Translations under genes and position numbers: made by a program
Notes under the pieces: model-generated
What the model saw: the letters and a program-made list of their open reading frames with translations, nothing else
Told to the model about the DNA's origin: nothing
Database searches by the model: none
Source: an uncultured Gammaproteobacteria bacterium
GTDB taxonomy: Bacteria > Patescibacteriota > Microgenomatia > UBA8517
Direction: 5' to 3'
DNA: 64,000 nucleotides
Assembly (NCBI GenBank): GCA_964396785.1
Contig: CAYNFU010000001.1
Location: forward strand, 943-64,942
In this document: positions 1-64,000 of the stretch, one piece after another
Layout: each line of letters starts with the position of its first letter
Numbering within the stretch: position 1 is the stretch's first letter

Positions 1-304
1 GTGCTCCTACTGCGTGGGCCGGTCCCGTGTCGCGCCTTGCTGGCTCGACTATTATGTTATCAGGGGATAAATGACTTTCTTCCCTGAGAATTTCCTTTTT
101 ATAGGCTTCTGAAACCGTAATCACAAATATTTTCTCCCAAGGCAGAATCTTGTTTAATCTTTCGAGAGTGATTTGGGTGAGGGTTTTTTCTCCAAAAAGT
201 TTGAGAAATTGTTTTGGAGTTTTCTCACGAGATTTCGGCCAAAGTCTTGTACCACCACCTCCAGCGAGAATGAGCGCGAATAAATGTTCTTTGTAACTAT
301 CCAT
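1..304 (-). CDS. NDP-sugar pyrophosphorylase, likely mannose-1-phosphate guanylyltransferase (ManC/CpsB-type). N-terminal fragment only; the gene runs off the left edge.
   Basis: Reverse-strand translation from ATG at 304..302 reads MDSYKEHLFALILAGGGGTRLWPKSREKTPKQFLKLFGEKTL...IVEPARRDTGPAHAVGA. It contains the G-G-x-G-T-R-L-W-P nucleotidyltransferase signature and the EPxxRxTxPA motif typical of GDP-mannose pyrophosphorylases. It is not in the supplied ORF track because it is truncated. Confidence 0.7.
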   Translation of the reverse strand, partial: MDSYKEHLFALILAGGGGTRLWPKSREKTPKQFLKLFGEKTLTQITLERLNKILPWEKIFVITVSEAYKKEILREESHLSPDNIIVEPARRDTGPAHAVGA

Positions 305-1394
305 TAATATTATTGATAAGCTTTAACAATCTCTTTTTAAAGACATCCTTTGAAAATCGCTCGGCGGATTTAACTATTTTACCTCTATTAAACGACATTT
401 TTTCAAATTTCTTTATGGCTTCGGTCAGACTTACCACCGACTGTTTTTCAAAAAAGACTCCATTTACGCCTGGCAAAATAGTATCCTGCGCACCCCCTAC
501 TTTATATGCAACCACCGGGGTACCGGCCGCATGGGCCTCGACAACCACTTTTCCAAAGTCTTCCTCCTGCGGGAAAATCAATGCCCGTGCCTTACTATAG
601 TAGTGAGAAAGCTCTCTATCTGTCAATTCTCCTATAAACTTGACGTTGCCTTTTGCCATCTTTTTTAGCCTACTTTCCTCGCTCCCCTTTCCAATGATAG
701 TAAGTGGTAGACCAAGCTTATTAAAAGCTCGAACCGCCAGATCCACCCTCTTGTAAGGAGTAAGGCGGCCAACCAAAAGATAAAAATCTGACTCATTTCT
801 TTTCCCTTTGAATTTCTCAATATCTACAGGGGGGTATATAACTTCTGACTCGCGACCATAGTACTTTTCGATCCTTTTTTTGACGACGCTTGATATGGCT
901 ATCATCAAATCGGGCCTAGCGCTTGCAATCTTGTCCCAATTCCTAAGATAGCTAACCAGCGGCCTTGAAATGCCCCTAAAGAAGGGGAACGTTTTAAATT
1001 TACTCGGGGGGAACCTGAAATAAAAATCGTGGGCACTCCAAAGGTAGCGCGTGGGCGTAAGGCAATAACAAATATGAACCGTTCCTGGTTTTGTTATTAT
1101 TCCCTTGGCAGCCTCAGAAGTTACTGAAATAACCAAGTCAAAGGCAGAAAAATCGAAACTTTCAAATGCAATAGGAGTAAAAGCTCCTAAAAATTCATGA
1201 TTGGTTTTTGTTAAGGGAATTTTTTGCAAAAAGGAGGGAATAACCGAAGGAAAAACTTTCGCCCAAGGAGCGTCTTTGGGGGAATAAACCGATGTATAAA
1301 GTGGAGCATCGGGGAAAAGTTCATGCAGGGTGAGTAAGTCGCGCTCGGCCCCACCCCATTTGTTGACTCTATCGTATACGAGCGCAACTTTCAT
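297..1394 (-). CDS. Glycosyltransferase, GT4 / group 1 family (GT-B fold)
   Basis: 365 aa. The N-terminus has the GGAER motif. The C-terminal EDFGKVVVEAHAAGTPVV stretch is the EX7E-type nucleotide-sugar binding signature of Glycos_transf_1. Confidence 0.8.
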   Translation of the reverse strand: MKVALVYDRVNKWGGAERDLLTLHELFPDAPLYTSVYSPKDAPWAKVFPSVIPSFLQKIPLTKTNHEFLGAFTPIAFESFDFSAFDLVISVTSEAAKGIITKPGTVHICYCLTPTRYLWSAHDFYFRFPPSKFKTFPFFRGISRPLVSYLRNWDKIASARPDLMIAISSVVKKRIEKYYGRESEVIYPPVDIEKFKGKRNESDFYLLVGRLTPYKRVDLAVRAFNKLGLPLTIIGKGSEESRLKKMAKGNVKFIGELTDRELSHYYSKARALIFPQEEDFGKVVVEAHAAGTPVVAYKVGGAQDTILPGVNGVFFEKQSVVSLTEAIKKFEKMSFNRGKIVKSAERFSKDVFKKRLLKLINNING

Positions 1395-2499
1395 AGATTT
1401 TAAGTGTCTCTTGCGCCATTTTATTCCAAGAGTATCTTTTTACAAAATCGCGTGCTTTAGCAATCCTTTCCTCCCGGGCTTCAGCTCCTATTTCTAAAGC
1501 CAGCTCCATTGTTCTGGCAATTGATGAGAAATCAAAGGGATTAAAATAAATCGCGTGCTCTTTGTAAACCTCCTTAAGAACCAAAATTTCGGATGCCAGT
1601 ACTAAAGTTCCCACCTCCATCGCGTCAAGACCCGGTATCCCAAATCCTTCGGATAAAGTAGGAAAGACAAATGCGGCTGAGTGCCTGTAAAGTGTTCCCA
1701 CCTCCTCATCTGGCAAAAAGCCTAGAACTTTGACAAAAGCGCCAGCTCCCATTTCGGAAATTAACTTCTCAAGTTTTTTGACAAAGAAATTCCTAGCAGA
1801 AACTATTACCAAGTGTGCTTTTATTCTGCGCTCTGTATTAAGAGAGATAATCGCTTCAATTAATCTTTTCAAATTCTTATGGGGATAGGCGTTTCCTGTG
1901 TATATAAAGTAGGGTGTTTCAATACCATACTTTTTCAAAAGCGGGGTAACAGCGCCCCCTCCAGATAAATCACTTACTCCTTCAGGCGTGACTGAAACTT
2001 TATCTGGGTCAAGGCTGTAATAGTCTACCAGTTCTTTTTTGACCGCATGGCTGGGAACAATAATTTTTACGGGCTTTTTAACCGCCCTATCAAATACGGC
2101 TCTATAGCCCAGTCGTTTAATAAGGTACACGATGGGAGCAAGTGTGGTTGCTTCAAACCCTTTTTGCTTATGCATAAGTAAATCGTGAATTGTTACAACA
2201 TAATCTCCTCGATAGAGAATGGGTACGTTGAAGTGGGGAAAATGAACCAAATCGGGCTTCTCATTTTTTAATATCTTGGGAAGAGAAATTTGTTCGCTAA
2301 ATGAATATTGGCGAAAGTCTCCCTTAATTTTCTTGAAATTCGCGGGTAAAGATAAACTTTTAAAATAGTTATTTCTTAAAATGAGAGTGTAATCGTTTTT
2401 TCTGTCAATTTTTGCAAGATTTTGAGTTAGCTCCATAACATACCTACCTATTCCGGTATGTTCAATTCCATACATTCTGGCGTCGATTACGATTTTCAT
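1369..2499 (-). CDS. Glycosyltransferase, GT4 / group 1 family
   Basis: 376 aa. N-terminal MKIVIDARMYGIEHTGIGRY matches the GT4 N-domain. C-terminal FPTLSEGFGIPGLDAMEVGTLVLAS is the EX7E region. Confidence 0.8.
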   Translation of the reverse strand: MKIVIDARMYGIEHTGIGRYVMELTQNLAKIDRKNDYTLILRNNYFKSLSLPANFKKIKGDFRQYSFSEQISLPKILKNEKPDLVHFPHFNVPILYRGDYVVTIHDLLMHKQKGFEATTLAPIVYLIKRLGYRAVFDRAVKKPVKIIVPSHAVKKELVDYYSLDPDKVSVTPEGVSDLSGGGAVTPLLKKYGIETPYFIYTGNAYPHKNLKRLIEAIISLNTERRIKAHLVIVSARNFFVKKLEKLISEMGAGAFVKVLGFLPDEEVGTLYRHSAAFVFPTLSEGFGIPGLDAMEVGTLVLASEILVLKEVYKEHAIYFNPFDFSSIARTMELALEIGAEAREERIAKARDFVKRYSWNKMAQETLKIYESCARIR

Positions 2500-3695
2500 T
2501 TGGAGGAAATTACACTTGCGTAAATAGGGTCGTGAAGTTTAACAACCTCTTTCCAATCAAAGTATCTGTGAACGTGGTTTTGACCTTTTTGTCCTATACG
2601 ATTTGCCAAATCTGGGTTTTTTAGTAGTTTGATAGCTTCCCTGGCAAGGGCTTCATCACTATCTGCAATGAGCGCTTGTTCCCCCTGAGTGATATTAAGA
2701 CCAGCGACTCCAATTGACGTCGAGACAACAGGAAGCCCGGCGGCCATGGCTTCTAATATTTTTAAGCGGGTTCCCCCCGCTCCTTTTATTGGAGCAACCA
2801 TTATGCTCGCACTTCCGTAAGCATCTCTTGCATCAGGAATATTTTCGGTTATTTCAATGCTTTCATCACTTTCTGAAAGTCTCTTAATCCATTCTGGAAT
2901 TTCTCTGCCTACAATCCAAACCTTAGCATTTGGGACCTCCTTTTTAACCTTAGGCCATATTTTTTTTATCAATATTTCTGAAGCCTCTTGATTTTGAAGC
3001 CACTCAAAGTTGCTTACACCATATAATACTTTAGGGGGCAATTTCCTTTCCATCTTTTTTGCCGCATAAAACTCGGTATCAACCCCGTTAGGAATAATAT
3101 CGACTTTTACCCCTGGAATTAGCTTAATCATTTCACTCCTGTCCTCGGCCGAAACTGCCACTAATTTGCTTGCTTTAGTCCAGTAATGTTTTTCCCAATA
3201 CTTAACCTTTAAAACGTCATACATATAAAAAGGCCTCAAGATTCTAGGTACCTTTGTCTCTACGTGGTGTTTATAAACATCGTGCCAAATAGTTTGCTCG
3301 ACGAGTATTGTGGGAACGTCGGTGCGGGCTAAATGCGGCATAACATAGAAAGTCTCGGCGTGGATCAAATCATATTTCTCATTGGCGAGTTCCAGCGAAA
3401 CCGCCCGCCTTTCCTTTAAAGACAAATTTCTAATAACCATAAGCGGGAATGGCCCGAAAAGAGAAAGGAGCACATTTCTTACGGTCCAAGGCTTTTTTGG
3501 CCTATCAAAAACCATTACTTTTTTGCAGTATTTCCTAAGCTCCGGAATGAATTTCTCCTCAGATGTATCTTTTGCGAGGGAAAAAAGGGTAATATCGTGC
3601 TTCTTTGAAAGGTATTTGATTATATTGTACCAGCGTGTTTGTCCACCGCTGGTCTCAGGTTTTGGCAAATAGGGAACTAACATCAATATCTTCAT
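2496..3695 (-). CDS. Glycosyltransferase, GT4 / group 1 family
   Basis: 399 aa. Contains PETSGGQTRW near the N-terminus and APIKGAGGTRLKILEAMAAGLPVVST at the C-terminus. There is a 4-bp overlap with the upstream gene. Confidence 0.8.
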   Translation of the reverse strand: MKILMLVPYLPKPETSGGQTRWYNIIKYLSKKHDITLFSLAKDTSEEKFIPELRKYCKKVMVFDRPKKPWTVRNVLLSLFGPFPLMVIRNLSLKERRAVSLELANEKYDLIHAETFYVMPHLARTDVPTILVEQTIWHDVYKHHVETKVPRILRPFYMYDVLKVKYWEKHYWTKASKLVAVSAEDRSEMIKLIPGVKVDIIPNGVDTEFYAAKKMERKLPPKVLYGVSNFEWLQNQEASEILIKKIWPKVKKEVPNAKVWIVGREIPEWIKRLSESDESIEITENIPDARDAYGSASIMVAPIKGAGGTRLKILEAMAAGLPVVSTSIGVAGLNITQGEQALIADSDEALAREAIKLLKNPDLANRIGQKGQNHVHRYFDWKEVVKLHDPIYASVISSK

Positions 3696-5197
3696 TTTAT
3701 GGGTTTATGTAAATCTGCTATTAAATAAGTATTTGTTTTCTCAACTACTTCAAACCTTGCAATAACGTCTAGAGTATCTGGGTCATTTAGGCTAACAGTA
3801 ACGTAATAATCCGCCCCTTTTTGAATTATTTCATCCACCGATGAATCAATTACCGGCCATCCCCTTCTTTTTGTCTGGTAAAGAAATGCAGTATCCCCAT
3901 TGTAGGGTGCAATTACTATCGCATCCTTGGGAGTCAATCTATCAACGGCTGCCCCTGCCTCCATAATTTCCGGGTGGTTAACTTTATAAAACTCTCTAAC
4001 TTCGGAGGCTCCTGTTGTAAACATAATGAGTATCGAGAATATTGCAACAGATCTGGTAGCTACGAGCGGAAAGTCTCGGGAATTCCACAAATAAATTAGC
4101 CCCTCTGCCAAGGTTAAAGAAATTGCCGGAATAGCAATCGCCTGATAGTAATCGTGCCTTACGTTGGCTGTGGCAAAGACGACAACATAAATGAGCATCC
4201 CTAGTAAAAATGCATGTGTAAATAGGTCTTTCTTGGGTTTAAGAAGTCCAAAGACAAATATTATAATTCCCCAGAATCCCAAAATAAGTTTTGTTAGTCT
4301 CTCCCCAAAAATCCAGCGAAAAAAAGCGGGTTTTAAGCGGATTCCGTCACCATTGAACATCCAAGACCATCCGGGGATGCCTGCTGGAAATTTACTAATC
4401 CAGGCCCGCCAGACAAAGAAAGGAACCAAAATTATATCTACAAAAATAAGGAGTTTAATTAAGAGTTTGGGATTTTGGAAAATTTTCTTAAAAGAATATT
4501 TCTTTGATATTAAATAAATTAAAGGAACTGTATAAAAAATAATAAAGGGCTTAATTAAAAGTCCAAGAGCGATGGAAACCCCTGATAGATATAAAAAGTG
4601 TGCTTTATCTTTGTCGATAAAAAGAATAAAAAGCCAAATTCCCAACAGGCCAAAAAATATTGCCGTAGGTTCGGGCAGTATTACTCTGGTGAAATAAATG
4701 TTAAAAGGCAAAAAGAGGAAAAAAAATGAAGCTAAAACCCCACCCCACTTATTCATAAATCTTGCTCCCAGAAAGTAGAGAATAAACCCTGAACCTAAAG
4801 TAAAAATAATCGAAACTAGCCTCCCCCATACTTCAAAGGACACAACGCCAATATTTTTGGCTAAAACTGCGTGTATTGCGTTATAGAGAGGGAACTCAAC
4901 ATATCGATAGCCTTCTGGGTTTAAAATTCGAGACTGGGTTGAGGATAAATCGTAGTAACGTGGATAAAGTATATTAACACCGTTTTCCACGTAAAGCCTG
5001 GCAACGGCCGCTGTGTCAGCTTGCCTAAAAGAATGCCAATCTGCAATCGGATTATCTATTTTATATAACCTGACTATAAAACCACCAACAAGTATTAATG
5101 CTAACAAATAGTACTCAATACGCTTAACTGAAATAACTCGCGCAACTAATTTATTCAATATATTTCTCATTTCGTACCAGTCCCACCAAAACACCAA
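3692..5197 (-). CDS. Polytopic membrane protein, putative GT-C-fold (ArnT/PMT-like) glycosyltransferase. The start codon is uncertain because the ORF-track start overlaps the upstream gene.
   Basis: 501 aa. The first approx. 400 aa contain more than 10 predicted TM segments, and the first extracytoplasmic loop is WHSFRQADTAAVARLY. The approx. 120 aa C-terminal domain is soluble. This architecture resembles the GT39/GT83 families. Confidence 0.5.
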   Translation of the reverse strand: MVFWWDWYEMRNILNKLVARVISVKRIEYYLLALILVGGFIVRLYKIDNPIADWHSFRQADTAAVARLYVENGVNILYPRYYDLSSTQSRILNPEGYRYVEFPLYNAIHAVLAKNIGVVSFEVWGRLVSIIFTLGSGFILYFLGARFMNKWGGVLASFFFLFLPFNIYFTRVILPEPTAIFFGLLGIWLFILFIDKDKAHFLYLSGVSIALGLLIKPFIIFYTVPLIYLISKKYSFKKIFQNPKLLIKLLIFVDIILVPFFVWRAWISKFPAGIPGWSWMFNGDGIRLKPAFFRWIFGERLTKLILGFWGIIIFVFGLLKPKKDLFTHAFLLGMLIYVVVFATANVRHDYYQAIAIPAISLTLAEGLIYLWNSRDFPLVATRSVAIFSILIMFTTGASEVREFYKVNHPEIMEAGAAVDRLTPKDAIVIAPYNGDTAFLYQTKRRGWPVIDSSVDEIIQKGADYYVTVSLNDPDTLDVIARFEVVEKTNTYLIADLHKPIK

Positions 5198-6506
5198 TTA
5201 ATAACCAGAAGATTATAGCGAATTTTGACGCTTCAAAAACGTCAATAAAAACTGCATTAATTAATACACCAATGCTCCCTCCCAAAAGACCTGCAACAAT
5301 TGGCCTTTGAATTTCTGGTAGCTTTTCCAAGTTAGACTTCACATTTGCTAAAAACAACGATCCAATCCGAAGGAAAATTAAACAAAATGCTGCAAATCCC
5401 AAAATTCCTGTCTCTCCCAATGCCCTTAAATAATCGTTATCTGTGGCAAGTGTAATTGAAGAATAACCAGTACCAAGTAGTGGATTTTTTGCCAATGACC
5501 TTACCGCCCTCGGCCATTCTACATTTATCCTGATTGAAGAAGATCTATCTTCTATGACGGGTGGAGGTGCTGGTGTAGGAGTCACAAAATCTGTCCTTCT
5601 TTGTGGCACTTCCTCTTGTGCGTATACTGTCCATGACGCATCCCCCGTTCTTTTTTTAACCTCGTCAAAAATTCTTAAATATCTGGCCCTTAAGTCTGGG
5701 GAGAATGAGAAAAATATCAAACTAATGATAGTTACAACGAGAACCTCCTTATACTTTCTAAGGATTAGTAGTGCAACACTAACTCCCACCAAATATGAAA
5801 CGATAGAAATTCTTGATACTGAGGCGAGTAGTAACCAAAGGCCAGAAAAGATTGCCCCCGCAATTAATATTTTCCATAATTTCTGTTTGAGGGTATAAAA
5901 GAGAGCTATAAAAATTGGTAAAACGAAAACCAAAAAAGTGGCTAGATCATAGTGCCCTGCGAACGTGGAATTTATGTGACTTCCCGGTAGCCAGCGAAGG
6001 GCAATTCCTTTTGCATACTCTACGTTTTGTGTGACTATTACTGGCCAATAAAGGAAACGCTGCCCCAGTGCATAAACGAAGACAATAAATAATGTAAGTA
6101 AAAGAACCTTGATATAAAAACTCAAATTCTCTCTATTTCGTATTGCGAGAACTCCCAAGAAAAACCCTGAAAAATATTCAATTCTCCTTAAGAAGTGTAG
6201 AAGTCCAATCTCTGGCTCTACCGACTTTGTTATTAAAACTCCCGACAGCAAAGATAGAAGCCCAACTAACGAATAGATTAAAATAGATTTTTCGATTTTT
6301 AAAGAAAATATCCGAAAAAGTTTTGGAAGTAAATATATCCCGCAAATTCCAAAAACCGTCGCCATCAAAAAATCCTCCAATCTTACAGAAACTTGTATTC
6401 CGGGAATCCTAATAAAAGGAAACTTGGGATACAAAATTATTACCATAATAACTGCGGCGGTTAAGTATTTGAAAATGTTATCCGGTGACTTTAAAAGAGT
6501 TCGCAT
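5151..6506 (-). CDS. O-antigen ligase / polymerase family membrane protein (Wzy_C domain)
   Basis: 451 aa with about 10 TM helices. A large loop contains LGTGYSSITLATDNDYLRALGETGILGF, which matches the Wzy_C H/N-x-Y-L-x-x-L-x-E-x-G-x-x-G signature. A Pro-rich linker (PTPAPPPVIEDRSSS) is inserted upstream of the loop. Confidence 0.65.
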   Translation of the reverse strand: MRTLLKSPDNIFKYLTAAVIMVIILYPKFPFIRIPGIQVSVRLEDFLMATVFGICGIYLLPKLFRIFSLKIEKSILIYSLVGLLSLLSGVLITKSVEPEIGLLHFLRRIEYFSGFFLGVLAIRNRENLSFYIKVLLLTLFIVFVYALGQRFLYWPVIVTQNVEYAKGIALRWLPGSHINSTFAGHYDLATFLVFVLPIFIALFYTLKQKLWKILIAGAIFSGLWLLLASVSRISIVSYLVGVSVALLILRKYKEVLVVTIISLIFFSFSPDLRARYLRIFDEVKKRTGDASWTVYAQEEVPQRRTDFVTPTPAPPPVIEDRSSSIRINVEWPRAVRSLAKNPLLGTGYSSITLATDNDYLRALGETGILGFAAFCLIFLRIGSLFLANVKSNLEKLPEIQRPIVAGLLGGSIGVLINAVFIDVFEASKFAIIFWLLIGVLVGLVRNEKYIE

Positions 6507-6511
6507 AATTT

Positions 6512-7057: not shown

Positions 7058-7066
7058 TTCAAAGAG

Positions 7067-7669
7067 TTACTGGAAAAGCCTTGCCCGGCCCAGGCGATAA
7101 TGAAGATCCTTATGTTTTCTCTCTCCGATAACTTTTGCAGGAACTCCACCGACAATTTCGAAGTCTTGAACACTTTTTGTAACCACTGCTCCGGCTGCTA
7201 CAACCGCTCCTTTACCAATCTTCACACTGGGTAAAATAATTACTCTGGGTCCTATAAACACGTAGTCGCCTATTTCTACAGGAGCTTCAATTGGTGAAAA
7301 GTCGTCCTTCTCAAGGTCGTGCTCAGAGTTATATATCATTACTTCTGAGGCAATATCAACGTGTTTACCTATTATAAGGGGAGCTCTGCCATCCAGGAAA
7401 ACATGGTCTCCGATAATTGTATCTTCTCCAATCTTGATGTTTCGAGGCTGAAAAAATCTAGCCCACATATGAATTACACTATTTCTGCCAATTTGAACTC
7501 CTGCAAGCATATAAAAGAGGGACCTTAGCGAATGAAATGGGATATGGCCTACCCAACGAAGCAACATAAGTTCAAAATCTAGCCAGTAGTTATATAAGCG
7601 GTTTTTTATCTTGGGAAAGGCTTCGAAAAGCGTCAATTCCTTTCCCATTCTGTCCGTAAATAAGGCCAT
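7067..7669 (-). CDS. Hexapeptide-repeat (LbH) O-acetyltransferase, WcaF/colanic-acid acetyltransferase-like
   Basis: 200 aa with tandem [LIV]-G-x-x-x-x repeats: IGEDTIIGDHVFLDGRAPLIIGKHVDIASEVMIYNSEHD ... IGDYVFIGPRVIILPSVKIGKGAVVAAGAVVTKSV. Confidence 0.8.
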   Translation of the reverse strand: MALFTDRMGKELTLFEAFPKIKNRLYNYWLDFELMLLRWVGHIPFHSLRSLFYMLAGVQIGRNSVIHMWARFFQPRNIKIGEDTIIGDHVFLDGRAPLIIGKHVDIASEVMIYNSEHDLEKDDFSPIEAPVEIGDYVFIGPRVIILPSVKIGKGAVVAAGAVVTKSVQDFEIVGGVPAKVIGERKHKDLHYRLGRARLFQ

Positions 7670-7672
7670 ATT

Positions 7673-33528: not shown

Positions 33529-33552
33529 GGCTACCTAATTATGCAACAGGTC

Positions 33553-34197: not shown

Positions 34198-34224
34198 TTT
34201 TTAAAACCTTTTCTAATTCAATCT

Positions 34225-40454: not shown

Positions 40455-40796
40455 TTACTCGTTCTTCTTTTTTAATCCCTTAAGGGCTTCTTTTCTAATA
40501 AATCTTTCGAATTTCTTTTCTATTCTTCTAGTCCTTACATAGGCTAATGCTACCATGGTAATCACCAAAACTAGCCCTCCCATTATCATTAGATCAAGAA
40601 GTCTTGAGATAAAAAACGTTTGAGCAATGCCCCGCAGTGTATCAGGAAAAAGAACCGTATAAAGGGCACTTCCCCATGCTCCCATCCAAATGGTTATCTC
40701 AATTTTATTTAGTTCTTTTCTCCTGAAGTTCACATAAGCTAAGTAGACCATGACCATGGCAAAAATTATCGCAACAAATTGTAGGCCTAATATCAT
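40455..40796 (-). CDS. Small membrane protein (2-3 TM) sandwiched between GT2 genes. DUF2304/GtrA-like candidate.
   Basis: 113 aa. MILGLQFVAIIFAMVMVYLAYVNF ... LLDLMIMGGLVLVITMVALAYV. It ends in a basic tail (RRIEKKFERFIRKEALKGLKKKNE). Its position directly downstream of a GT2 gene is typical of small accessory membrane proteins that partner polyprenyl-P-sugar synthases. Confidence 0.45.
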   Translation of the reverse strand: MILGLQFVAIIFAMVMVYLAYVNFRRKELNKIEITIWMGAWGSALYTVLFPDTLRGIAQTFFISRLLDLMIMGGLVLVITMVALAYVRTRRIEKKFERFIRKEALKGLKKKNE

Positions 40797-58266: not shown

Positions 58267-60086
58267 TTATCGAGCCAGCCAGATAACATTACAAGCATCC
58301 AGATAGCCCCCGCATTATTTTCTTTCCCTTTCTGATGGGCAGTCCAAATACTCTTAATTTTTTTTTTCTCGACATAGTTTTCGAGTTTCTTATTCATAAG
58401 TATTGTATACGCAAAATCTTTTAGTTCATTTCGTAACCATTTTTTTAGTGGTATTCCAAATCCTTTCTTTGGTCTTTTGGCTACTTCCGGAAGCCTACTC
58501 TCCAAAAGCTTTCTAAGTTGAAGTTTCGTTTTAAATAAGTTCAAATGGGGCTCTCGGGTTGAAAATGCCCAGGCAAGCACATTGTTATCTAGATAGGGAA
58601 CTCTAACCTCGAGACTATTAAGCATCGAAGCGCGGTCTGTTTTAACCAAAAAATCGTCGCGCAGGTAGGTATAAAAATCGACAACTTGACCTACACGACT
58701 TTTATCAAATCTATCTAAATTCGGTATCATTTTTGATAAAAATGACATATCGGGTTTTTCAAATAAATTGTTCTCTCCAATAAAAAACGTCCTCATCCAA
58801 TAAAGTTGTCTTTCCAAATCGCCAAATTTCATACCCTTAAGGACTATTTTCGCAAGATGCTTTTTGGGGTAGTCTTTGAATGACGTCGGAAATAGGTTAA
58901 CGACAGATTCGGGTAATCCCTCAAGAAGTCCCGAAAGAAGGGTATTCGGTAAAAATTTAAGTAAATTAGCATAAAGGTGGGCTTGGTGGGTCGGATATCC
59001 CCCAAAAAGCTCATCGCCCCCGTCACCCGACAGGGCAACGGTCACATGCTGCCTTGCCAGCTGACTCACCTTATAAGTCGGGAAGAGTGACGCATCCGCT
59101 AGTGGCTCATCCAATTTCGGAATTATTTTCTCATAAATATCGACGACGTCTTTTGGGCTAAATTCATCACTAAAATGCTCTGTCCCTATTTTTTTAGCAA
59201 CACTGTGCGCGTATTTTGCTTCGTCAAAACCTTCTTCTTTAAAACCTATCGAGAAGGATTTGAGTTTTTTAAATTTGGCTACATAGTAAGCTATTAAACT
59301 TGAGTCGAGGCCCCCGCTCAAAAAAACGCCAACTGGAACGTCGGAAACAAGCTGGCTTTTAACTGCGGTCTCTAATAGTTTGTCTATATTGTCAGTTTTA
59401 TTTTCCGAGCTGGAATTAAGTTCAAAATACTTAGCAACTTTCATTCCAGATTTCTTGAAGCTCAAGGTATGTCCCGGAAGCAGCTTTTTAATTCCAGAAA
59501 ACATGACTTGGTCTCCAGGAAGAAATCCTAGATAACCATACATGCTAAGGGCCTTACTATCTGTTTTCTTTTTATATAAAGGGTGGGAAAGAATTACTTT
59601 CGGTTCAGAACCAAATATCAAAAGATTTGAGGCTACATAATAATAAAGAGGTTTTATCCCAACTCTGTCACGTCCCAGAAAAATCTTGTGCCCCTTCTCG
59701 TCCCAAAGAGCAAAGGCAAACATACCGTTTAATTTAGGAACAAAGCCTTCACCGTATTCTTCATATCCGTGTACCAAGACCTCGGTGTCGGTTTGGGTTT
59801 TAAATTTATGTCCCCTTTTCTCGAGTTCCTCTCGAAGCGGCTTATAATTATAAATTTCTCCGTTATAAATAACGACGACGCTCCCGTCTTCATTTTTAAT
59901 CGGCTGATCCCCAGTTGTTAGGTCAATAATTCGAAGTCTACGAATTCCAAGTGCGGCAACATTATCTCGACTCCTATATATTCCTGTCGAATCCGGTCCC
60001 CGATAAATAATCTTTTTCGTCATTTCGCCAATGACCGAAGGACCCGTTCTTCCTGAAAAATCAACGTACCCGGCAATCCCGCACAT
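58257..60086 (-). CDS. asnB: Asparagine synthetase (glutamine-hydrolysing) family amidotransferase, AsnB-like. Second copy.
   Basis: 609 aa. It starts MCGIAGYV (Cys2 nucleophile). LSGGLDSS is the PP-loop. It is embedded in the glycan locus between GT-C paralogs. Confidence 0.9.
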   Translation of the reverse strand: MCGIAGYVDFSGRTGPSVIGEMTKKIIYRGPDSTGIYRSRDNVAALGIRRLRIIDLTTGDQPIKNEDGSVVVIYNGEIYNYKPLREELEKRGHKFKTQTDTEVLVHGYEEYGEGFVPKLNGMFAFALWDEKGHKIFLGRDRVGIKPLYYYVASNLLIFGSEPKVILSHPLYKKKTDSKALSMYGYLGFLPGDQVMFSGIKKLLPGHTLSFKKSGMKVAKYFELNSSSENKTDNIDKLLETAVKSQLVSDVPVGVFLSGGLDSSLIAYYVAKFKKLKSFSIGFKEEGFDEAKYAHSVAKKIGTEHFSDEFSPKDVVDIYEKIIPKLDEPLADASLFPTYKVSQLARQHVTVALSGDGGDELFGGYPTHQAHLYANLLKFLPNTLLSGLLEGLPESVVNLFPTSFKDYPKKHLAKIVLKGMKFGDLERQLYWMRTFFIGENNLFEKPDMSFLSKMIPNLDRFDKSRVGQVVDFYTYLRDDFLVKTDRASMLNSLEVRVPYLDNNVLAWAFSTREPHLNLFKTKLQLRKLLESRLPEVAKRPKKGFGIPLKKWLRNELKDFAYTILMNKKLENYVEKKKIKSIWTAHQKGKENNAGAIWMLVMLSGWLDNWV

Positions 60087-60131: not shown

Positions 60132-60731
60132 GTGAAAAAGAAATATCTAAAAATTTTTCTCTTAGCCTCACCATTCTATCTCAAGGGAAGAAGCGCCGAT
60201 AAGTTGCACCACCTGGTCGTAGCCAGAATGATGGAAAAAATCCTTAAAGAAAACCCCAAATTAGATTCTGATGTAATGATGGCTGTTGCTCTACTTCACG
60301 ACATAGGCTATGCCAAAATTCCAAAGCATAAAATTGGGAGTTTCTGGGCAAAAAAGATAAAAAAGGACCATATGAGGTTGGGAGCAGAGCTTGCACAAGA
60401 TATCTTAGGCAGGATCAATTTCCCTCAAGGAAAAATAGAAAGGGTTTGCGAAATCATCGCAACTCACGATAATCCCGAATTGGGCCTACCGATATACTCT
60501 TATGAAGCGGAGGTTCTAAAAGAAGCAGACATTCTTTGGATGACGACCGAAGAAGCATTTTGGCTGGATATTGGCAGAAGGCAAATTCAACCAGAGGAGT
60601 GGCTTACTACTTTAGAAAAAAGATTCAGCAAAGATCCTGAGTATAAGCCCTATATTAAGACAAAATTTGGCAAAGGCCGAGTCAGGAATTTTCTAAGGCA
60701 AATGCGAAAGAAATTAAGGGGACAGCCTTAA
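60132..60731 (+). CDS. HD-domain metal-dependent phosphohydrolase. GTG start as in the ORF track; the true start is uncertain.
   Basis: 199 aa. It contains H...HD...H...D elements: KLHHLVVAR, AVALLHDIGY, IATHDNPE, LKEADILW. It is one of only two plus-strand genes. Its stop overlaps the stop of the convergent GT2 gene by 4 bp. Confidence 0.65.
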   Translation: MKKKYLKIFLLASPFYLKGRSADKLHHLVVARMMEKILKENPKLDSDVMMAVALLHDIGYAKIPKHKIGSFWAKKIKKDHMRLGAELAQDILGRINFPQGKIERVCEIIATHDNPELGLPIYSYEAEVLKEADILWMTTEEAFWLDIGRRQIQPEEWLTTLEKRFSKDPEYKPYIKTKFGKGRVRNFLRQMRKKLRGQP

Positions 60732-61684
60732 AACTTCTCAATATCTTTAACTTCGTAAATAGATTTTCCTTGGGATTCGAAATAGGTACGCACCTGAAGT
60801 TCAGCCAAAAATCCCATTAGCATAAATTGCACCCCCAAAAAGCCCAAGAAAATGGCTATTAGAAAAACCGGATTCCTATGGACAAAAACTCCAAGGAAGA
60901 GCTTTTGATAAGTGGTCAAGATTAAGGCCAAAGCCCCGAGCGCCATACTCCCCAACCCGAACGACCCAAAAACATAAGCCGGTTTGGTTCCGTAAGAGCT
61001 TATAAATTTCACTGTAATAATGTCAATTAACGTCTTTACTATTCGGTTAAATCCGTATTTTGACTGACCCGCCATCCTGGGTCTATGCTGTACCACAATC
61101 TCTCCAATTTTTGCTCCCTTAAGGTATATGAGTACTGGGAGTATTCGGTGGAGTTCCCCGTAGAGTGGCATATCTTTCAAAAAGGACCTTTTGACTACCC
61201 TCGCAGAACAACCCACATCGTGGTAGGGATATGAGAATACAAAATTAATAACTCTATTAGCTGCACCTGAATAAAAACGTCTCGCTCTTGAGAATTTTTT
61301 TTCTTTGCGCCAACCAAAAACCGCGTCGTACCCTTCGTCCATCTTCTCTAAAAATCTAGGAATGTCGAAGGGATCGTTTTGTAAGTCTGCGTCCAAAAAA
61401 GAAATTAAATTACCTTCAGAGTTTTCTATTCCTGCGGCAACCGCACCTGTTTGGCCAAAGTTCCTAAGAAGTGTGACCACCTTGACAGAAACTTTTCCAT
61501 TTCCCTTTCTAACTGCTCTTTTTACTTCTTCGGCGGATGAATCGGTACTCCCGTCATTTACATATATTACCTCCGAGGGGGAAGAGAGGCCTTCCAATAC
61601 TTTTACGAGCTCTTCGTGAAGCTTAGGTAAATTACTCTCTTCATTAAAAAAAGGAACTACCACCGAAAGGTTAATGTTACTCAT
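60728..61684 (-). CDS. GT2 polyprenyl-phosphate sugar synthase (GtrB / ArnC / DPM1-like) with two C-terminal TM helices
   Basis: 318 aa. LSVVVPFFNEESNLPKLHEELVKVL...VIYVNDGSTDSS, FLDADLQND (DxD). C-terminal PAYVFGSFGLGSMALGALALILT...FLIAIFLGFLGVQFMLMGFLAELQVR is typical of the GtrB family. Confidence 0.8.
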   Translation of the reverse strand: MSNINLSVVVPFFNEESNLPKLHEELVKVLEGLSSPSEVIYVNDGSTDSSAEEVKRAVRKGNGKVSVKVVTLLRNFGQTGAVAAGIENSEGNLISFLDADLQNDPFDIPRFLEKMDEGYDAVFGWRKEKKFSRARRFYSGAANRVINFVFSYPYHDVGCSARVVKRSFLKDMPLYGELHRILPVLIYLKGAKIGEIVVQHRPRMAGQSKYGFNRIVKTLIDIITVKFISSYGTKPAYVFGSFGLGSMALGALALILTTYQKLFLGVFVHRNPVFLIAIFLGFLGVQFMLMGFLAELQVRTYFESQGKSIYEVKDIEKF

Positions 61685-61685
61685 G

Positions 61686-63002
61686 TTACCTCTTTAATGT
61701 TAGCACGTGAGACTCTTGCTTTCTTCCAGATATAGAAAATCTACTTGCCATTAAATACTTTTTATACATGGCAATATAAATCATAAAGCTACCTAACCCC
61801 AAAACCCTCGTTGCCAGCCTGTCTTGGTACGAAAGCAGTCGTATCAATAAGTCTATTTTCGGAATCCACCAAAAATTATATAGATTCAAAAGGTTAATGG
61901 CACTAAGAAGATAGTAGTACACAGAAGCTCCTTTCTCCAAAACCGCTACAACTATAAAGGTAGTAAAAAATGGATATAAGTACCTTTCGTGCATGTTTGT
62001 AAGTAGCATAAATGAGGAAAGAGTAACTATCGAAAGGGACCAAAAAGTGGACGTAGTATCCTTTTTCTTGGCTAAAACAAAAAGTACAGGGATGTAGCTT
62101 AAGAAAAATAAGATATATCCCCAAATTTTAAATGGTAGAGGTCCAAATAATAGATCATGGGGGCGCGCATGTATTCCTTTTATGGCAGCCCAAATATTAA
62201 ACGCATTGGCTGTAATAAGTTGTAATTGCTCAGTCATGACTTTACTTTTGTAGAAATCGTAAATCCAATAGAAGGTATTATTTTTGGAAAAGGGCAGAAA
62301 AAGAAGAAATACAGTAACTAAAATCACAATTAAAGCAGTAAAATACTTTCTCGGTTTATATTTCTGGGCTAAGGCCACAATAAGAAAAACAGGAACGTAG
62401 ATTAATAATGAAATTTTTATATAAAGTGAGATTATTAGAGAAACTATTGCCCAGTTGAGGTTCTTTCTAAATAACAAATAAAAGGCAAGAACCGCAAAGA
62501 AATTGTTTACCGATTCATACTGACCCCAAACGACCGAGTTATAAATTATTACCGGGTTTAACAAAAATAGGAGTGCTCCAATTTGGGCCTTTTTCTTATC
62601 TGAAAGCTTTAATATTATTTTGTAAATCAAGAGGGCTATTCCGAAATCTGCCAATATTGTAGGTATTTTTGCCACAAAGTAGATAAAGTCCCTCTCGAAG
62701 TAAAACATCAAATTCGAGGGAAATACTGGGATATTAACATTTAAAAACCAGAAGAAAGAATAAAAAAGTTCAAATAATTTTCTAATTCCCGCGTAAAGAA
62801 GAATCGTACCCGGAGGCTGGTTGGGCCAATCGAAGCTCCAGACGTTACTTTCAAAGAATAGTTTTGGGCCATACTGCCAAAACCTGGTCCCCCAGTCGAG
62901 TGAGTTTCTTAAATCCGTATGGACTGGGGTTGGCAGTAAGGCAATTATTAGTCTTAATAGAAGGGCGGCGAGAATTATGTATAAAAACTTTTTTGCAGTC
63001 AT
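61686..63002 (-). CDS. Polytopic membrane protein, unknown family (possible GT-C-like glycosyltransferase)
   Basis: 438 aa with about 12 TM helices. The first loop is FWQYGPKLFFESNVWSFDWPNQPPGTILLY. No soluble C-terminal domain. Confidence 0.5.
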   Translation of the reverse strand: MTAKKFLYIILAALLLRLIIALLPTPVHTDLRNSLDWGTRFWQYGPKLFFESNVWSFDWPNQPPGTILLYAGIRKLFELFYSFFWFLNVNIPVFPSNLMFYFERDFIYFVAKIPTILADFGIALLIYKIILKLSDKKKAQIGALLFLLNPVIIYNSVVWGQYESVNNFFAVLAFYLLFRKNLNWAIVSLIISLYIKISLLIYVPVFLIVALAQKYKPRKYFTALIVILVTVFLLFLPFSKNNTFYWIYDFYKSKVMTEQLQLITANAFNIWAAIKGIHARPHDLLFGPLPFKIWGYILFFLSYIPVLFVLAKKKDTTSTFWSLSIVTLSSFMLLTNMHERYLYPFFTTFIVVAVLEKGASVYYYLLSAINLLNLYNFWWIPKIDLLIRLLSYQDRLATRVLGLGSFMIYIAMYKKYLMASRFSISGRKQESHVLTLKR

Positions 63003-64000
63003 TTAATTTTTTGTAAGAAATAAAAAGCGGGTTCACCGGATGGATATTGAACGACTTTAACGAGTTTTAATCCCTCGGGAGTGTATTGTGGTTCCATTAC
63101 CAAATTCCCTTTAATTTCTCTTGCGGAGGCTACATATAAAGTGTCATTATCTAAATAATCACCCAGACCACCCAGTCCGACTTTTCCATCTACCTGTCCA
63201 AAGTAAGTTTTAGCGAAGTACTCTAGCTCTCCAAACCCGTTTACCTTCTCTTTAGAAAGTCCTTTTTGCCACTCTTCGGGGTCAGCGAGGTAATAGGCAG
63301 CAAAAAATATTCTAGGATCGTCGTTCGCGTTTGTGAGAATAATCTTTCTATACTGCCCTTGTTTGTCTCTTAGGGTATCTACTACTTCCTTATACCCGGC
63401 ATGCCAGGAACGCTCAGAATACCAAATGTTGTGCGTCCAGTAGTTATGCTCGTAATAGACAAAACTTATAAAATACAGAAAAACGAAACTTGCGGTGAGT
63501 ATTATGCGCTTTTTACCTAACAAGGAGTGAAATGCTTCGAAAATGCCATAGGAGATTAAAAAAACCAAAGGGGGCAAAATAATAACAAGTCTTGTAGCGT
63601 GGGTTCCCCCGTCTCTTGTTATTGCTGAAGGTAAAATCCCTATGAAGATCCAAAACAACATCAAGAATTTAATCTTTCTGTCTTTGAATCTGGTAAAAAA
63701 CAAAGCAACACCCAATAAAAGCGCCACTACCTCAAACTTATAAAACTGTCCCATCCCCGCAATTGAATGTCTTAGGTTTGGATCTCCCTTTAAAAATAAA
63801 AATTCGAAGGATAAAGAAGAAAGGGAGTTATTGATAACCTTGGAGCCCCAAAAGCTAAATTTGTTATGAATAACCCTTGTTAATACTTTCGAGACAATAC
63901 CCCCACCATAAACATTTCTTACCTGGGCGTCATATAAAATTGAGTAATCGACTTCGGATTTCGTGGTGGGGTCGGTAAAAATACTCAAGTATTCGGCACG
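62999..64000 (-). CDS. C-terminal part of a further GT39-like GT-C paralog (tandem paralog 7). The 5' end lies beyond the right edge of the window.
   Basis: The reading frame is open to the window edge. The translated region (…FLFLKGDPNLRHSIAGMGQFYKFEVVALLLGVALFF… ERSWHAGYKEVVDTLRDKQGQYRKIILTNANDDPRIFFAAYY…) aligns with the last TM helices and the C-terminal soluble domain of paralogs 1-6. Confidence 0.6.
   Translation of the reverse strand, partial: RAEYLSIFTDPTTKSEVDYSILYDAQVRNVYGGGIVSKVLTRVIHNKFSFWGSKVINNSLSSLSFEFLFLKGDPNLRHSIAGMGQFYKFEVVALLLGVALFFTRFKDRKIKFLMLFWIFIGILPSAITRDGGTHATRLVIILPPLVFLISYGIFEAFHSLLGKKRIILTASFVFLYFISFVYYEHNYWTHNIWYSERSWHAGYKEVVDTLRDKQGQYRKIILTNANDDPRIFFAAYYLADPEEWQKGLSKEKVNGFGELEYFAKTYFGQVDGKVGLGGLGDYLDNDTLYVASAREIKGNLVMEPQYTPEGLKLVKVVQYPSGEPAFYFLQKIK

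Follow-up and report, generated by a model that had tools for sequence, protein, structure and literature searches.

By what route, and from which primer, does a very large glycan-assembly locus build its product? The question is raised by a 64-kb stretch of DNA, analysed here as a whole and referred to as the window, in which no priming phosphoglycosyl transferase (PGT) is encoded. The host is a member of Candidatus Woesebacteria (Microgenomates, CPR), a groundwater bacterium with a tiny genome; complete Woesebacteria genomes measure 0.9-1.08 Mb. GenBank proteins for this host are those of strain GW2011_GWA1_39_12. The window's 64 kb form the middle of a larger cell-envelope glycan locus, conserved among relatives, that runs past both edges and has a total length of at least 78 kb, so that the single very large locus proposed in a previous sequence-only reading is borne out and continues on both sides. 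Considering ORFs of at least 100 aa, 52 minus-strand ORFs tile positions 297-63988, a 53rd minus-strand gene is truncated by the left edge, and 99.5% of the window lies within ORFs. Gene spacing is operon-like throughout, with 19 four-base start/stop overlaps (18 ATGA and one GTGA), close to the 20 or so that had been estimated. The previous count of at least 55 co-directional genes was, on the other hand, overstated: 53 genes are co-directional and two (g40 and g04) lie on the opposite strand. Because these two interrupt the string, the single operon that had been implied is unsupported.

When all 54 ORFs were scanned against Pfam and NCBIfam, the enzyme classes previously proposed were recovered (Table 1). 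The glycosyltransferases comprise 18 GT-C membrane enzymes (four of them assigned on PMT_2 scores below the Pfam cut-off) plus one further candidate, seven GT4 and nine GT2 enzymes, accompanied by six methyltransferases, two AsnB-type amidotransferases and a single Wzx, Wzy_C protein, carbamoyltransferase and acetyltransferase. The further candidate, g33, keeps that status because an hhalign comparison gave no match. For the g25 family, a GT-C fold is computationally established, and GT2 and GT-C activities are linked in it, since distant members carry an N-terminal GT2 domain fusion. The best family match of g40 is an EPS-associated amidotransferase. g17 was also considered as a WecA/MraY-type PGT and rejected, as it is devoid of DD or DGxDG motifs and its homologues carry the families given in Table 1.

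Table 1. Genes of the window, with coordinates, strand and the match, motif or remark on which each assignment draws.
Gene	Assignment	Coordinates	Strand	Match, motif or remark
(partial)	ManC-like mannose-1-phosphate guanylyltransferase (370 aa)	1..304	-	GMP_PMI 1.9e-85; first 101 codons, off left edge
g54	GT4, conserved tail module	297..1394	-	Glycos_transf_1 1.4e-30; position conserved in relatives
g53	GT4	1369..2499	-	9e-25; position conserved in relatives
g52	GT4	2496..3695	-	Glyco_trans_1_4 3.6e-25; position conserved in relatives
g51	GT-C (PMT_2), conserved beside Wzy	3692..5197	-	PMT_2 9e-13; ~11 TM
g50	Wzy_C-domain protein	5151..6506	-	Wzy_C 4.2e-13; ~11 TM; conserved
g49	Conserved bitopic protein, 181 aa	6512..7057	-	no Pfam/NCBIfam family; in relatives between acetyltransferase and Wzy
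g48	WcaF-family hexapeptide O-acetyltransferase	7067..7669	-	Hexapep 2.1e-19; WcaF family 1.4e-28
g47	GT4	7673..8803	-	4.8e-36
g46	GT4	8800..9888	-	3.9e-23
g45	GT-C (PMT_2)	9885..11294	-	PMT_2 7e-09; loop-1 motif LDES
g44	Membrane protein, extracytoplasmic deacetylase/GH57-like barrel	11291..13120	-	6 C-terminal TM
g43	GT2	13117..13938	-	1.4e-34
g42	GT4	13935..14957	-	7.5e-22
g41	GT-C, weak PMT_2	14954..16312	-	PMT_2 2.7e-05, under curated cut-off; ~9 TM
g40	AsnB-type glutamine amidotransferase	16381..18267	+	Asn_synthase 1.1e-89; TIGR01536 above cut-off
g39	GT-C (PMT_2)	18247..19719	-	3.2e-06; loop-1 motif SDDF
g38	SAM methyltransferase	19724..20512	-	Methyltransf_11 1.7e-26
g37	GT2	20488..21327	-	9.9e-14
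g36	Wzx-type MOP flippase	21324..22604	-	Polysacc_synt 4.7e-16; ~13 TM
g35	SAM methyltransferase	22635..23378	-	Methyltransf_11 2.1e-07
g34	GT-C, weak PMT_2	23375..24919	-	3.8e-05; BLAST link to GT-C cluster
g33	607-aa polytopic membrane protein, candidate GT-C only	24967..26790	-	LIC_10190 family 1.1e-08, below cut-off; WDEVVYHE motif
g32	NodU/NolO-type carbamoyltransferase	26783..28558	-	Carbam_trans_C 5.1e-64, Carbam_trans_N 9.9e-48; GenBank name NolO
g31	GT2 + C-terminal TM, resembles polyprenyl-phosphate-sugar synthase	28575..29648	-	AglJ 8.9e-24, PpgS 1.7e-17, Dol-P-hexose transferase 2.4e-17
g30	GT-C, weak PMT_2, conserved g25-module partner	29635..30993	-	3e-04; collinear in L080 and L081
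g29	Membrane protein, 327 aa	30965..31948	-	no Pfam/NCBIfam family; conserved downstream of g25-family genes
g28	GT-C of g25 family, g25 paralogue	31945..33528	-	38% identity to g25 over 532 aa; DD motif
g27	SAM methyltransferase	33553..34197	-	2.2e-12
g26	SAM methyltransferase	34225..34911	-	9.7e-27
g25	GT-C-fold enzyme, small family	35013..36623	-	no Pfam/NCBIfam match
g24	SAM methyltransferase	36620..37378	-	1.4e-19
g23	SAM methyltransferase	37375..38136	-	4.1e-23
g22	GT-C, weak PMT_2	38182..39666	-	1.5e-05; loop-1 motif HDDF
g21	GT2	39663..40451	-	4.2e-29
g20	DUF2304 small membrane protein, GacJ/Rv3632 family	40455..40796	-	DUF2304 1.8e-14
g19	PpgS/GacI-like GT2, candidate polyprenyl-phosphate-sugar synthase	40793..41440	-	PpgS 2.7e-33 full length, AglJ 3.1e-28
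g18	GT2	41437..42195	-	1.8e-24
g17	PIG-V/Gpi18-like GT-C mannosyltransferase	42206..43354	-	homologues carry PF04188, PF13231, PF09594
g16	GT4	43351..44517	-	2.3e-30
g15	GT2	44394..45251	-	4.9e-18
g14	FAD-dependent oxidoreductase, amine-oxidase/phytoene-desaturase type	45253..46530	-	Amino_oxidase 3.7e-27; PRK07233 3.2e-125
g13	GT-C (PMT/PMT_2)	46536..48149	-	loop-1 DE motif
g12	EamA/DMT 10-TM transporter, candidate flippase/sugar transporter	48150..49004	-	EamA 3.2e-26
g11	GT-C (PMT_2)	49004..50671	-	3.8e-08
g10	GT-C (PMT)	50681..52453	-	7.7e-11
g09	GT-C, paralogue of g11 and g10	52429..54108	-	no Pfam match; BLAST 2e-38 to g11; DE motif
g08	Polytopic membrane protein, 282 aa	54109..54957	-	no Pfam/NCBIfam family; no PGT motifs
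g07	GT-C (PMT_2/PMT)	54893..56578	-	3.7e-10
g06	GT-C (PMT_2, weak STT3)	56575..58266	-	1.4e-19
g05	AsnB-type glutamine amidotransferase	58257..60086	-	Asn_synthase 9.2e-87
g04	HD-domain phosphohydrolase	60132..60731	+	HD 4.4e-12
g03	ArnC/GtrB/PgfS-like GT2 + C-terminal TM, candidate synthase	60728..61684	-	ArnC 1e-49 full length, PgfS 5.5e-37
g02	GT-C-like membrane protein, 438 aa	61686..63002	-	BLAST link; hhalign vs GT-C profile: probability 88.8%, E 2.5e-06
g01	PMT_2 GT-C (573 aa), C-terminal ~333 codons	62999..64000	-	start beyond right edge; L006 1721-3442

The lack of a PGT inside the window, already pointed out in the sequence-only reading, was confirmed: no window ORF matches PF02397 or PF00953, and a search of the six-frame translation with a profile of the flanking PGT described below, made from 64 of its orthologues, gave no hit (best E 0.67), whereas the same profile retrieved that PGT, as positive control, at 9e-119. 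The absence is an effect of the position of the window's edge. Contig L002 is 100% identical to the window, the translation of the truncated ManC-like gene being identical to 11091-12203, and there the left flank reads ManC, PGT, DUF4012 and RecO. The PGT, a PF02397 protein of 217 aa, is encoded on the same strand 831-1484 nt outside the window, two genes past its left edge. It matches the WbaP/WcaJ catalytic domain (NCBIfam EPS_sugtrans 1.7e-73), and the Ser-Pro re-entrant helix and the KFRSM, SIDExPQ and PGITGxWQV motifs are kept in its 64 orthologues. Among related loci, the PGT is the gene immediately preceding DUF4012 in 61 of 63 and follows ManC in 59, and RecO follows DUF4012 in 64 of 66. 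The first of the two alternatives originally offered, a primer lying outside the window, thus holds. The second, that the missing primer favours protein or lipid glycosylation, loses its basis because the PGT adjoins the window in the gene string. In that primer-less scheme, GT-C enzymes would move single sugars from GtrB-type polyprenyl-phosphate monosaccharides onto proteins or lipids, in keeping with the abundance of GtrB-like GT2 and GT-C genes and a 64-kb window free of PGT. It is very improbable, being already contradicted by the flanking PGT and its conserved position, and the locus also carries genes for Wzx and Wzy_C, whose substrates are lipid-PP-linked units. In the EPS cluster of Bifidobacterium longum, too, DUF4012 comes after a priming GT (PMC5412050), a pairing common to both loci. 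In addition, genes for an LCP and a LytR_C protein are found within 6 kb downstream; the former gene lies on the opposite strand, and its linkage in relatives is loose.

The previously proposed hybrid route, in which lipid-linked Wzx/Wzy assembly is combined with extracytoplasmic GT-C action, is supported by the domain content of g03, g19/g20, g31 and the 18 GT-C genes. It has been established that GacJ, of the DUF2304 family, stimulates the Und-P-GlcNAc synthase GacI, whose donor is then taken by the GT-C enzyme GacL (bioRxiv 10.1101/180810); likewise, the PpgS/GacI-like g19 is adjoined by its DUF2304/GacJ-like partner g20. Neither a GtrA-family flippase nor a Wzz/PCP chain-length regulator was found in the window or its 10-kb flanks. 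The many GT-C genes, the polyprenyl-phosphate-sugar synthases, ManC and the PIG-V/Gpi18-like mannosyltransferase would also suit a lipid-anchored lipoglycan like mycobacterial LM/LAM, built by GT-C enzymes mostly outside the membrane on a glycolipid primer and devoid of peptidoglycan attachment. Such a product seems distinctly unlikely, however, as the conserved PGT, Wzx and Wzy_C point to a lipid-PP-linked route, no lipid-anchor acyltransferase was seen, and no PimA/PimB-type or Emb/Aft family sequence matches were found, the similarity being at the level of fold only.

The Wzy_C domain (PF04932) is common to O-oligosaccharyltransferases of the PglL/PilO protein type and to WaaL ligases. g50 could therefore act as polymerase, ligase or O-oligosaccharyltransferase, and polymerisation remains a candidate role. 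If g50 were PglL/PilO-like, the lipid-PP-linked glycan might be transferred en bloc to surface proteins such as pilins or the S-layer, and, in addition or instead, PMT-like GT-C enzymes might O-mannosylate secreted proteins from polyprenyl-phosphate-mannose. The PMT/PMT_2 and weak STT3 matches of the GT-C genes, the presence of ManC within the locus and the abundance of type IV pili in CPR bacteria (PMC6744442) are consistent with this scheme. Nevertheless, it appears unlikely: the approximately 18 GT-C paralogues far exceed the number in known protein O-mannosylation systems, the locus contains no acceptor protein gene, and both the EPS-like PGT-DUF4012 pairing and the nearby LCP and LytR_C genes argue against it, while the acceptor is not readable from GT-C fold similarity.

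Gene content, gene order, PGT position and conservation across relatives are computationally established, and the latter reveals a modular organisation. The tail block (AcT-h181-Wzy-GT-C-GT4x3-ManC-PGT-DUF4012) and the head block (Wzx2-TM571-GT2-GT2-GT4-GT-C-MT) are conserved separately, and a Polysacc_synt_3 gene upstream of the window encodes a second MOP flippase besides g36. Across the middle, gene order follows that of the nearest species, with identities of 57-90% (90% for the counterpart of g12), and cassettes have been gained and lost mid-locus among relatives. The two flippases, the separate blocks, the variable cassettes and the string broken by two opposite-strand genes might reflect at least two envelope-glycan pathways placed end to end with different products, for instance a Wzy-dependent wall polysaccharide from the tail and, from head and middle, a different glycan or lipoglycan built by GT-C enzymes. 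We regard this as a real but lesser possibility, given that no more than a single PGT gene and a single Wzy_C gene were seen across the 78 kb covered, the middle is collinear and operon-like spacing is maintained throughout.

From its domain content, the locus would, with reasonable probability, make a PGT-primed Wzx/Wzy-type wall glycan that is heavily extended or decorated outside the membrane by GT-C enzymes. In this model, ManC would supply GDP-mannose, and the flanking small monotopic PGT would load a sugar-1-phosphate onto polyprenyl phosphate. At the cytoplasmic face, seven soluble GT4 and some six soluble GT2 enzymes would assemble the lipid-PP-linked unit, to be tailored there by the SAM methyltransferases, the WcaF-type acetyltransferase, the NodU-type carbamoyltransferase and the AsnB-type amidotransferases. 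Wzx would then export the unit, and the Wzy_C protein would polymerise or transfer it. In a parallel branch, g03, g31 and g19, the last with g20, would generate polyprenyl-phosphate monosaccharides; once flipped, perhaps via g12 or the second Wzx, these would be spent outside the membrane by some 18-19 GT-C enzymes for polymer extension and branching. With the assistance of the bitopic DUF4012 protein, the product would probably be passed on to the wall, in line with the LCP ligase gene nearby. Given two opposite-strand genes, two Wzx genes and head and tail modules that are conserved independently, the locus might also yield more than one product. This kind of locus is already known, and what is new is its very large form.

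The sequence-only reading took the absence of a priming phosphoglycosyl transferase (PGT) as a clue to mechanism and, as one of two alternatives, argued from it for protein or lipid glycosylation. Within the window the absence itself is confirmed: no ORF matches PF02397 or PF00953, and a profile built from 64 orthologues of the flanking PGT gave a best E-value of 0.67 against the six-frame translation of the window (control, 9e-119). The sole window ORF of WecA/MraY-like size and topology, g17, is a membrane glycosyltransferase of the GT-C class; as a hidden WecA/MraY-type PGT it was rejected, lacking DD or DGxDG-type motifs and having PIG-V/PMT_2/GT87 proteins as homologues. A groundwater scaffold of 83,324 bp (ENA ERZ28564339 scaffold_269) matches the window at 100% identity, and on it the same strand carries, beyond window position 1, a gene for a ManC-like GDP-mannose pyrophosphorylase followed, after 21 nt, by one for a PF02397 protein of 217 aa. 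The suggestion that the primer might lie outside the window was therefore right, whereas its use as evidence on mechanism fails: 'no primer' is true of the coordinates and false of the locus. What looked like a missing primer results from where the window ends, and the primer-less model is contradicted by the PGT in the left flank. When a gene is absent from a window, its flanks need checking before a mechanism is chosen.

To judge from its sequence, the flank gene encodes a monotopic PGT of the PF02397 family (PglC/WbaP type), with a predicted function in the transfer of sugar-1-phosphate to polyprenyl phosphate. It aligns to the C-terminal catalytic domain of the EPS, WbaP and WcaJ models (1.7e-73, 4.1e-67 and 2e-59, respectively) and, being a short form, scores below the full-length equivalog cut-offs. 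At its N terminus the protein has a single hydrophobic segment, which contains Ser-Pro. The motifs KFRSM, SIDExPQ, GPR and PGITGxWQV are conserved across its orthologues, FSP and SIDExPQ being kept at 95% or more over the 64. By analogy with PglC, we take these last two motifs to represent the re-entrant helix Ser-Pro and the Asp-Glu catalytic dyad.

The PGT is followed by genes for a DUF4012 protein (669 aa), RecO, a LytR_C protein and MsrB, with an LCP (LytR_cpsA_psr) gene on the other strand. A search with DUF4012 of species-representative genomes returned 71 loci, nearly all from Woesebacteria or Microgenomates, the best match being RBG_16_42_24 (84% identity). Nearly every Woesebacteria locus has DUF4012 fixed in place between the PGT and RecO: the PGT lies directly upstream of it in 61 of the 63 loci with enough sequence and RecO downstream in 64 of 66 related loci, while ManC precedes the PGT in 59. 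In two related loci (L060 and L062) ManC abuts DUF4012 and tblastn detected no PGT; in these genomes the primer may come from elsewhere, or its gene may be lost. The DUF4012 protein is bitopic: a single TM segment separates about 50 residues in the cytoplasm from about 600 outside. A PF02397 PGT followed immediately by DUF4012 is likewise found in the EPS cluster of Bifidobacterium longum 105-A, which has the order cpsD (priming GT)-DUF4012-wzz (PMC5412050), and DUF4012 has been listed by Méheust et al. among the families common to CPR and Gram-positive bacteria (PMC6744442). Neither a Wzz/PCP protein nor a tyrosine kinase was found among the window ORFs or the called flank genes, and DUF4012 may substitute for the absent chain-length regulator.

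Within the window, 52 minus-strand ORFs of at least 100 aa tile positions 297-63988 nearly without gaps, with an ORF coverage of 99.5% and four-base start/stop overlaps at 19 junctions (18 ATGA, 1 GTGA). A further co-directional gene enters at the left edge; at the right edge, a 573-aa gene that starts beyond the window contributes only its C-terminal part. The large co-directional string recognized earlier thus stands, while its count of at least 55 genes has to be corrected to 53 co-directional and two opposed. The two opposed genes are wedged into the string. The stop of the AsnB gene overlaps its convergent neighbour by 21 nt and that of the HD gene by 4 nt, and on their other side divergent spacers of 68 and 45 nt, respectively, are left. 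This leaves two ways for the minus-strand string: a restart within these spacers, or read-through antisense to AsnB and HD. Promoter and terminator consensus scans of the whole window gave counts that did not exceed those of shuffled controls; two consensus matches fall in the 68-nt spacer. The window contains no tRNA, no Rfam match and, by tandem-repeat scan and self-BLASTN, no DNA repeat. Its paralogues are at most 38% identical in amino-acid sequence, which marks them, on sequence grounds, as old.

Coordinates of the features discussed (window positions unless another reference is named)
Feature	Coordinates	Strand	Remarks
Further co-directional gene	1-304		first 101 codons
Wzy_C protein g50	5151-6506		Wzy_C 4.2e-13; domain common to polymerase, ligase and O-oligosaccharyltransferase
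Divergent spacer at AsnB	16313-16380		68 nt
AsnB-type amidotransferase	16381-18267	+	
Wzx-type flippase g36	21324-22604		Polysacc_synt 4.7e-16
Block g23-g30	about 29635-38136		8.5 kb
GT-C protein g28	31945-33528	-	
GT-C protein g25	35013-36623	-	
g16	43351-44517		longest ORF, TTG start
g15	44394-45251		
FAD oxidoreductase g14	45253-46530	-	between a GT-C and a GT2; NCBIfam PRK07233 ('hypothetical protein') 3.2e-125
Divergent spacer at HD	from 60087		45 nt
HD-domain protein	60132-60731	+	
NodU/NolO-type carbamoyltransferase g32			
WcaF-family acetyltransferase g48			
EamA transporter g12			
DUF2304 protein g20			
Flank PGT	831-1484 nt outside left window edge		
DUF4012 protein	12888-14897 of left-flank contig L002		
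571-aa polytopic protein	1339-3054 of right-flank contig L005		

The Pfam scan covered all 54 ORFs, and an NCBIfam scan those unassigned or of key interest. Besides a large set of polytopic membrane proteins, the window encodes seven GT4 and nine GT2 glycosyltransferases, six SAM methyltransferases and two AsnB-type glutamine amidotransferases, which share 35% identity, both score above the TIGR01536 cut-off and have EPS-associated amidotransferases as nearest relatives. The FAD oxidoreductase g14 has a collinear orthologue in the nearest species that is 88% identical; that it acts on a polyprenyl-linked sugar or on polyprenol itself is speculation. As regards gene starts, the longest ORF of g16 overlaps g15 by 124 nt and the nearest-species orthologue has 360 aa, the true start of g16 probably lying downstream of the TTG; g51 resembles this case, with a TTG start, a 47-nt overlap and an ENA call of 492 aa.

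Three of the window's GT2 proteins (g03, g19 and g31) resemble synthases of polyprenyl-phosphate sugars, not chain-building enzymes. An end-to-end alignment with the ArnC model (1e-49) is obtained for g03, which also matches PgfS (5.5e-37), while g31 matches AglJ, PpgS and Dol-P-hexose transferase, and both carry C-terminal TM segments; g19 gives a full-length PpgS match (2.7e-33). The scores of all three against the synthase models are below the equivalog cut-offs. The start of g20 overlaps the 3′ end of g19 by 4 nt, its DUF2304 match (1.8e-14) is above the cut-off, and the g19/g20 arrangement is collinear in the nearest species (L162) and in two related loci (L080 and L081). GacJ, a member of the DUF2304 family, binds the Und-P-GlcNAc synthase GacI and activates it strongly; the GT-C enzyme GacL uses the product of GacI, and Rv3632 of M. 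tuberculosis does for PpgS what GacJ does for GacI (bioRxiv 10.1101/180810). For the polyprenyl-phosphate sugars, no GtrA (PF04138) homologue was found, and the flippase candidates are the EamA protein g12 and two Wzx genes. The candidacy of g12 rests on its position among GT-C genes and its 90% identity in the nearest species; ArnE and ArnF are EamA-type proteins too.

PMT or PMT_2 matches were obtained for 13 ORFs, those of g22, g30, g34 and g41 being below Pfam's cut-off. Most PMT/PMT_2-type ORFs have an acidic motif after the first TM helix, which reads '...DE..GY.AY' in g01, g06, g07, g09, g10, g11 and g13, LDES in g45, and DD in g22 and g39. Although g09 has no Pfam match, it is a clear paralogue (BLAST 2e-38 to g11). 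Four Pfam-negative proteins, g17 and g02 among them, were taken further through the domains of their homologues or by profile comparison. Many of the 1295 homologues of g17 carry PF04188 (PIG-V), PF13231 or PF09594, and the name given to these homologues in the sources is 'Gpi18-like mannosyltransferase'; g02 aligned with the window GT-C profile in hhalign with a probability of 88.8% (E 2.5e-6). In total, 18 GT-C genes make up 42% of the window. A further protein, g33, is only a candidate GT-C, with a weak LIC_10190-family match and a WDEVVYHE motif and no hhalign support.

The proteins g25 and g28 match nothing in Pfam or NCBIfam at E 0.01 or better, and their family reached only 44% probability against the window PMT_2 group in hhalign. 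Both show the GT-C transmembrane fold, that of g25 resembling AftA, AftB, AftD, PimE and EmbA, and their first extracytoplasmic loop carries an acidic pair, D41-D42, kept in at least 90% of 27 sequences. Searches of PDB sequences with profiles of the g25 and g44 families returned no match; fold searches were needed. One UniRef cluster member bears the label 'RgtA/B/C/D-like domain-containing protein' and some distant members match PMT_2; the family is thus a divergent and rare branch of GT-C, not an unrecognisable one. Among 1.84 billion sequences, g25 and g28 had 69 representatives at E 1e-30 or better. In the distant members P0327 and P0370 an N-terminal GT2 domain is fused to the GT-C domain, tying the two activities together. 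The PMT-like character of the GT-C genes, together with the occurrence of the Wzy_C domain in PglL/PilO, is compatible with a glycan attached to proteins, which may be the product of the locus. A lipid-anchored lipoglycan is another, somewhat less probable, candidate product.

To the right of the window, co-directional glycan genes reach the end of the scaffold: the rest of g01, two methyltransferases, a 511-aa PMT_2 protein, a GT4, a GT2, a 571-aa membrane protein and a MOP flippase, so that the MOP-family Wzx is represented both by g36 and by a second copy beyond the window edge. Dozens of metagenome contigs share this conserved head block, and the closest of them (72% identity to the 571-aa protein) has another GT2 and three or four GT-C-like genes upstream. 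The 571-aa polytopic protein has no family match and lies directly downstream of the second Wzx; its position is kept in more than 40 metagenome contigs at 53-72% identity, and it is possibly another GT-C-like enzyme. At the opposite end, relatives have a tail block, AcT-h181-Wzy-GT-C-GT4-GT4-GT4-ManC-PGT-DUF4012, collinear with window positions 1-8803. The locus is thus at least 78 kb long, its upstream end lying beyond the source contig and those of its relatives, and it would take up about 7-8% of the genome, as complete Woesebacteria chromosomes measure 0.90-1.08 Mb. The presence of two Wzx genes, the separate conservation of head and tail blocks and the two strand breaks count in favour of a rival reading, in which the locus would be a supercluster with more than one product.

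The middle of the locus varies by cassettes. In the nearest species g09 to g22 are collinear (57-90% amino-acid identity), and the order then jumps from the g22 orthologue directly to g31 and g32, g23-g30 being absent. This block, which has the lowest GC of the window (0.33-0.36), looks like cassette gain or loss as in O-antigen loci. More distant relatives have a sub-module GT2-DUF2304-GT2-(GT-C)-MT-MT-g25-g29-g30, where MT stands for methyltransferase, and the MT-MT-GT-C triplet occurs twice in the window (g23-25 and g26-28) and once each in L080 and L081. The missing block and the differing triplet number liken this region to O-antigen and capsule loci. Recent tandem duplication of the triplet was rejected, given that the GT-C pair is 38% identical and the methyltransferases only 25-35%; the latter values imply that the duplication is ancient or that the second triplet was acquired separately.

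On balance, we favour a PGT-primed, Wzx/Wzy-type glycan that is extended outside the membrane by GT-C enzymes, inferring the enzymatic steps, the sugar identities and the acceptor from the observed gene content, order, conservation and folds. The flank PGT would prime polyprenyl phosphate, on which soluble GT4 and GT2 enzymes would build a lipid-PP-linked unit subject to cytoplasmic methylation, acetylation, carbamoylation and amidation; Wzx would flip the unit, and the Wzy_C protein would polymerise or transfer it. In parallel, polyprenyl-phosphate sugars made by g03, g19/g20 and g31 would feed the approximately 18 GT-C enzymes, which would extend and branch the glycan outside the membrane. 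DUF4012 and the LCP ligase are candidates for its handling and wall attachment.

By analogy, the working of the locus resembles a combination of two known schemes, the Wzx/Wzy-dependent polysaccharide cluster of Gram-positive bacteria and Gac/Gtr-type extracytoplasmic glycosylation. With Wzx/Wzy-dependent capsule, EPS and O-antigen loci it shares Wzx, Wzy_C, sets of GT4 and GT2 genes and an acetyltransferase, as well as mosaic cassettes between relatives and a lower GC in the variable part. Such loci typically span 15-30 kb; this one is far longer, the GT-C genes take up the share of the window given above, and the PGT is the short, catalytic-domain-only form. As Wzz/PCP was not found, it does not belong to the textbook Wzy-dependent class. 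The Group A carbohydrate of Streptococcus pyogenes, a Gram-positive cell-wall polysaccharide that receives its side chains from a GT-C enzyme outside the membrane, is made with the primer GacO, the Und-P-GlcNAc synthase GacI/GacJ, the flippase GacK, the GT-C GacL and an LCP ligase (bioRxiv 10.1101/180810). Both systems have a lipid-PP primer enzyme, cytoplasmic glycosyltransferases, a MOP-family flippase, an extracytoplasmic GT-C, an LCP gene nearby and a DUF2304 protein as partner of a GT2 synthase of polyprenyl-phosphate sugars (here the predicted pair g19/g20). They differ in that the primer is a PF02397 monotopic PGT here and the WecA-type GacO there, in export (Wzx/Wzy-type versus an ABC transporter) and in the number of GT-C genes (about 18 versus one); the present locus, known from sequence alone, has no rhamnose genes and is about four times larger.

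With Gtr-type systems (GtrA flippase, GtrB GT2 and GT-C; ArnC/ArnEF/ArnT) the locus has in common the GtrB/ArnC-like g03, GT-C enzymes and an EamA-type protein, but its GT-C genes per donor synthase are far more numerous, about six to one, and since it has no GtrA it is not of the Gtr class in the strict sense. A comparable number of GT-C paralogues is otherwise found only in the mycobacterial arabinogalactan and LM/LAM machinery, which uses a WecA primer, DPA and PPM donors, PpgS-Rv3632 and many GT-C enzymes (Emb, Aft, PimE, Mpt). The principle is alike, a lipid-linked primer being elaborated outside the membrane by many GT-C paralogues from few polyprenyl-phosphate sugars, as are the PpgS-like GT2 with its DUF2304 partner and the fold of g25. 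Unlike in mycobacteria, there is no Emb/Aft family membership at the sequence level, the genes form one locus instead of being dispersed, Wzx/Wzy components are present and the host is a CPR bacterium of about 1 Mb.

Proteins identical to those of the window are in GenBank under Candidatus Woesebacteria bacterium GW2011_GWA1_39_12, the sequence having been public since the 2015 Rifle genomes; in the library available, the literature on glycosyltransferases of Woesebacteria, CPR/Patescibacteria and Microgenomates held no account of such a locus. A broader picture can be offered only tentatively: a single conserved locus in Woesebacteria might work as an assembly line for an envelope glycan that is very large, branched and modified by methylation, carbamoylation and amidation, most of it being built outside the membrane by about 20 GT-C enzymes, at the scale of mycobacterial arabinogalactan/LAM. 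Exchange of cassettes in mid-locus would diversify the surface, and among the enzymes of the line would be those of a GT-C family not described before (g25) and, for processing, the deacetylase-like, membrane-anchored g44.

Attachment to other cells is the presumed mode of life of CPR bacteria, whose envelope chemistry is, to our knowledge, almost undescribed. Targets offered by the locus are the PGT, the three donor synthases, the rare g25 family of GT-C enzymes and a cassette in which closely related species differ. Its size, conservation, GT-C density and cassette variation are distinctive in a genome of about 1 Mb, and the share of that genome it occupies, together with the 42% of the window given to GT-C genes, makes the surface glycan a major investment for these organisms.
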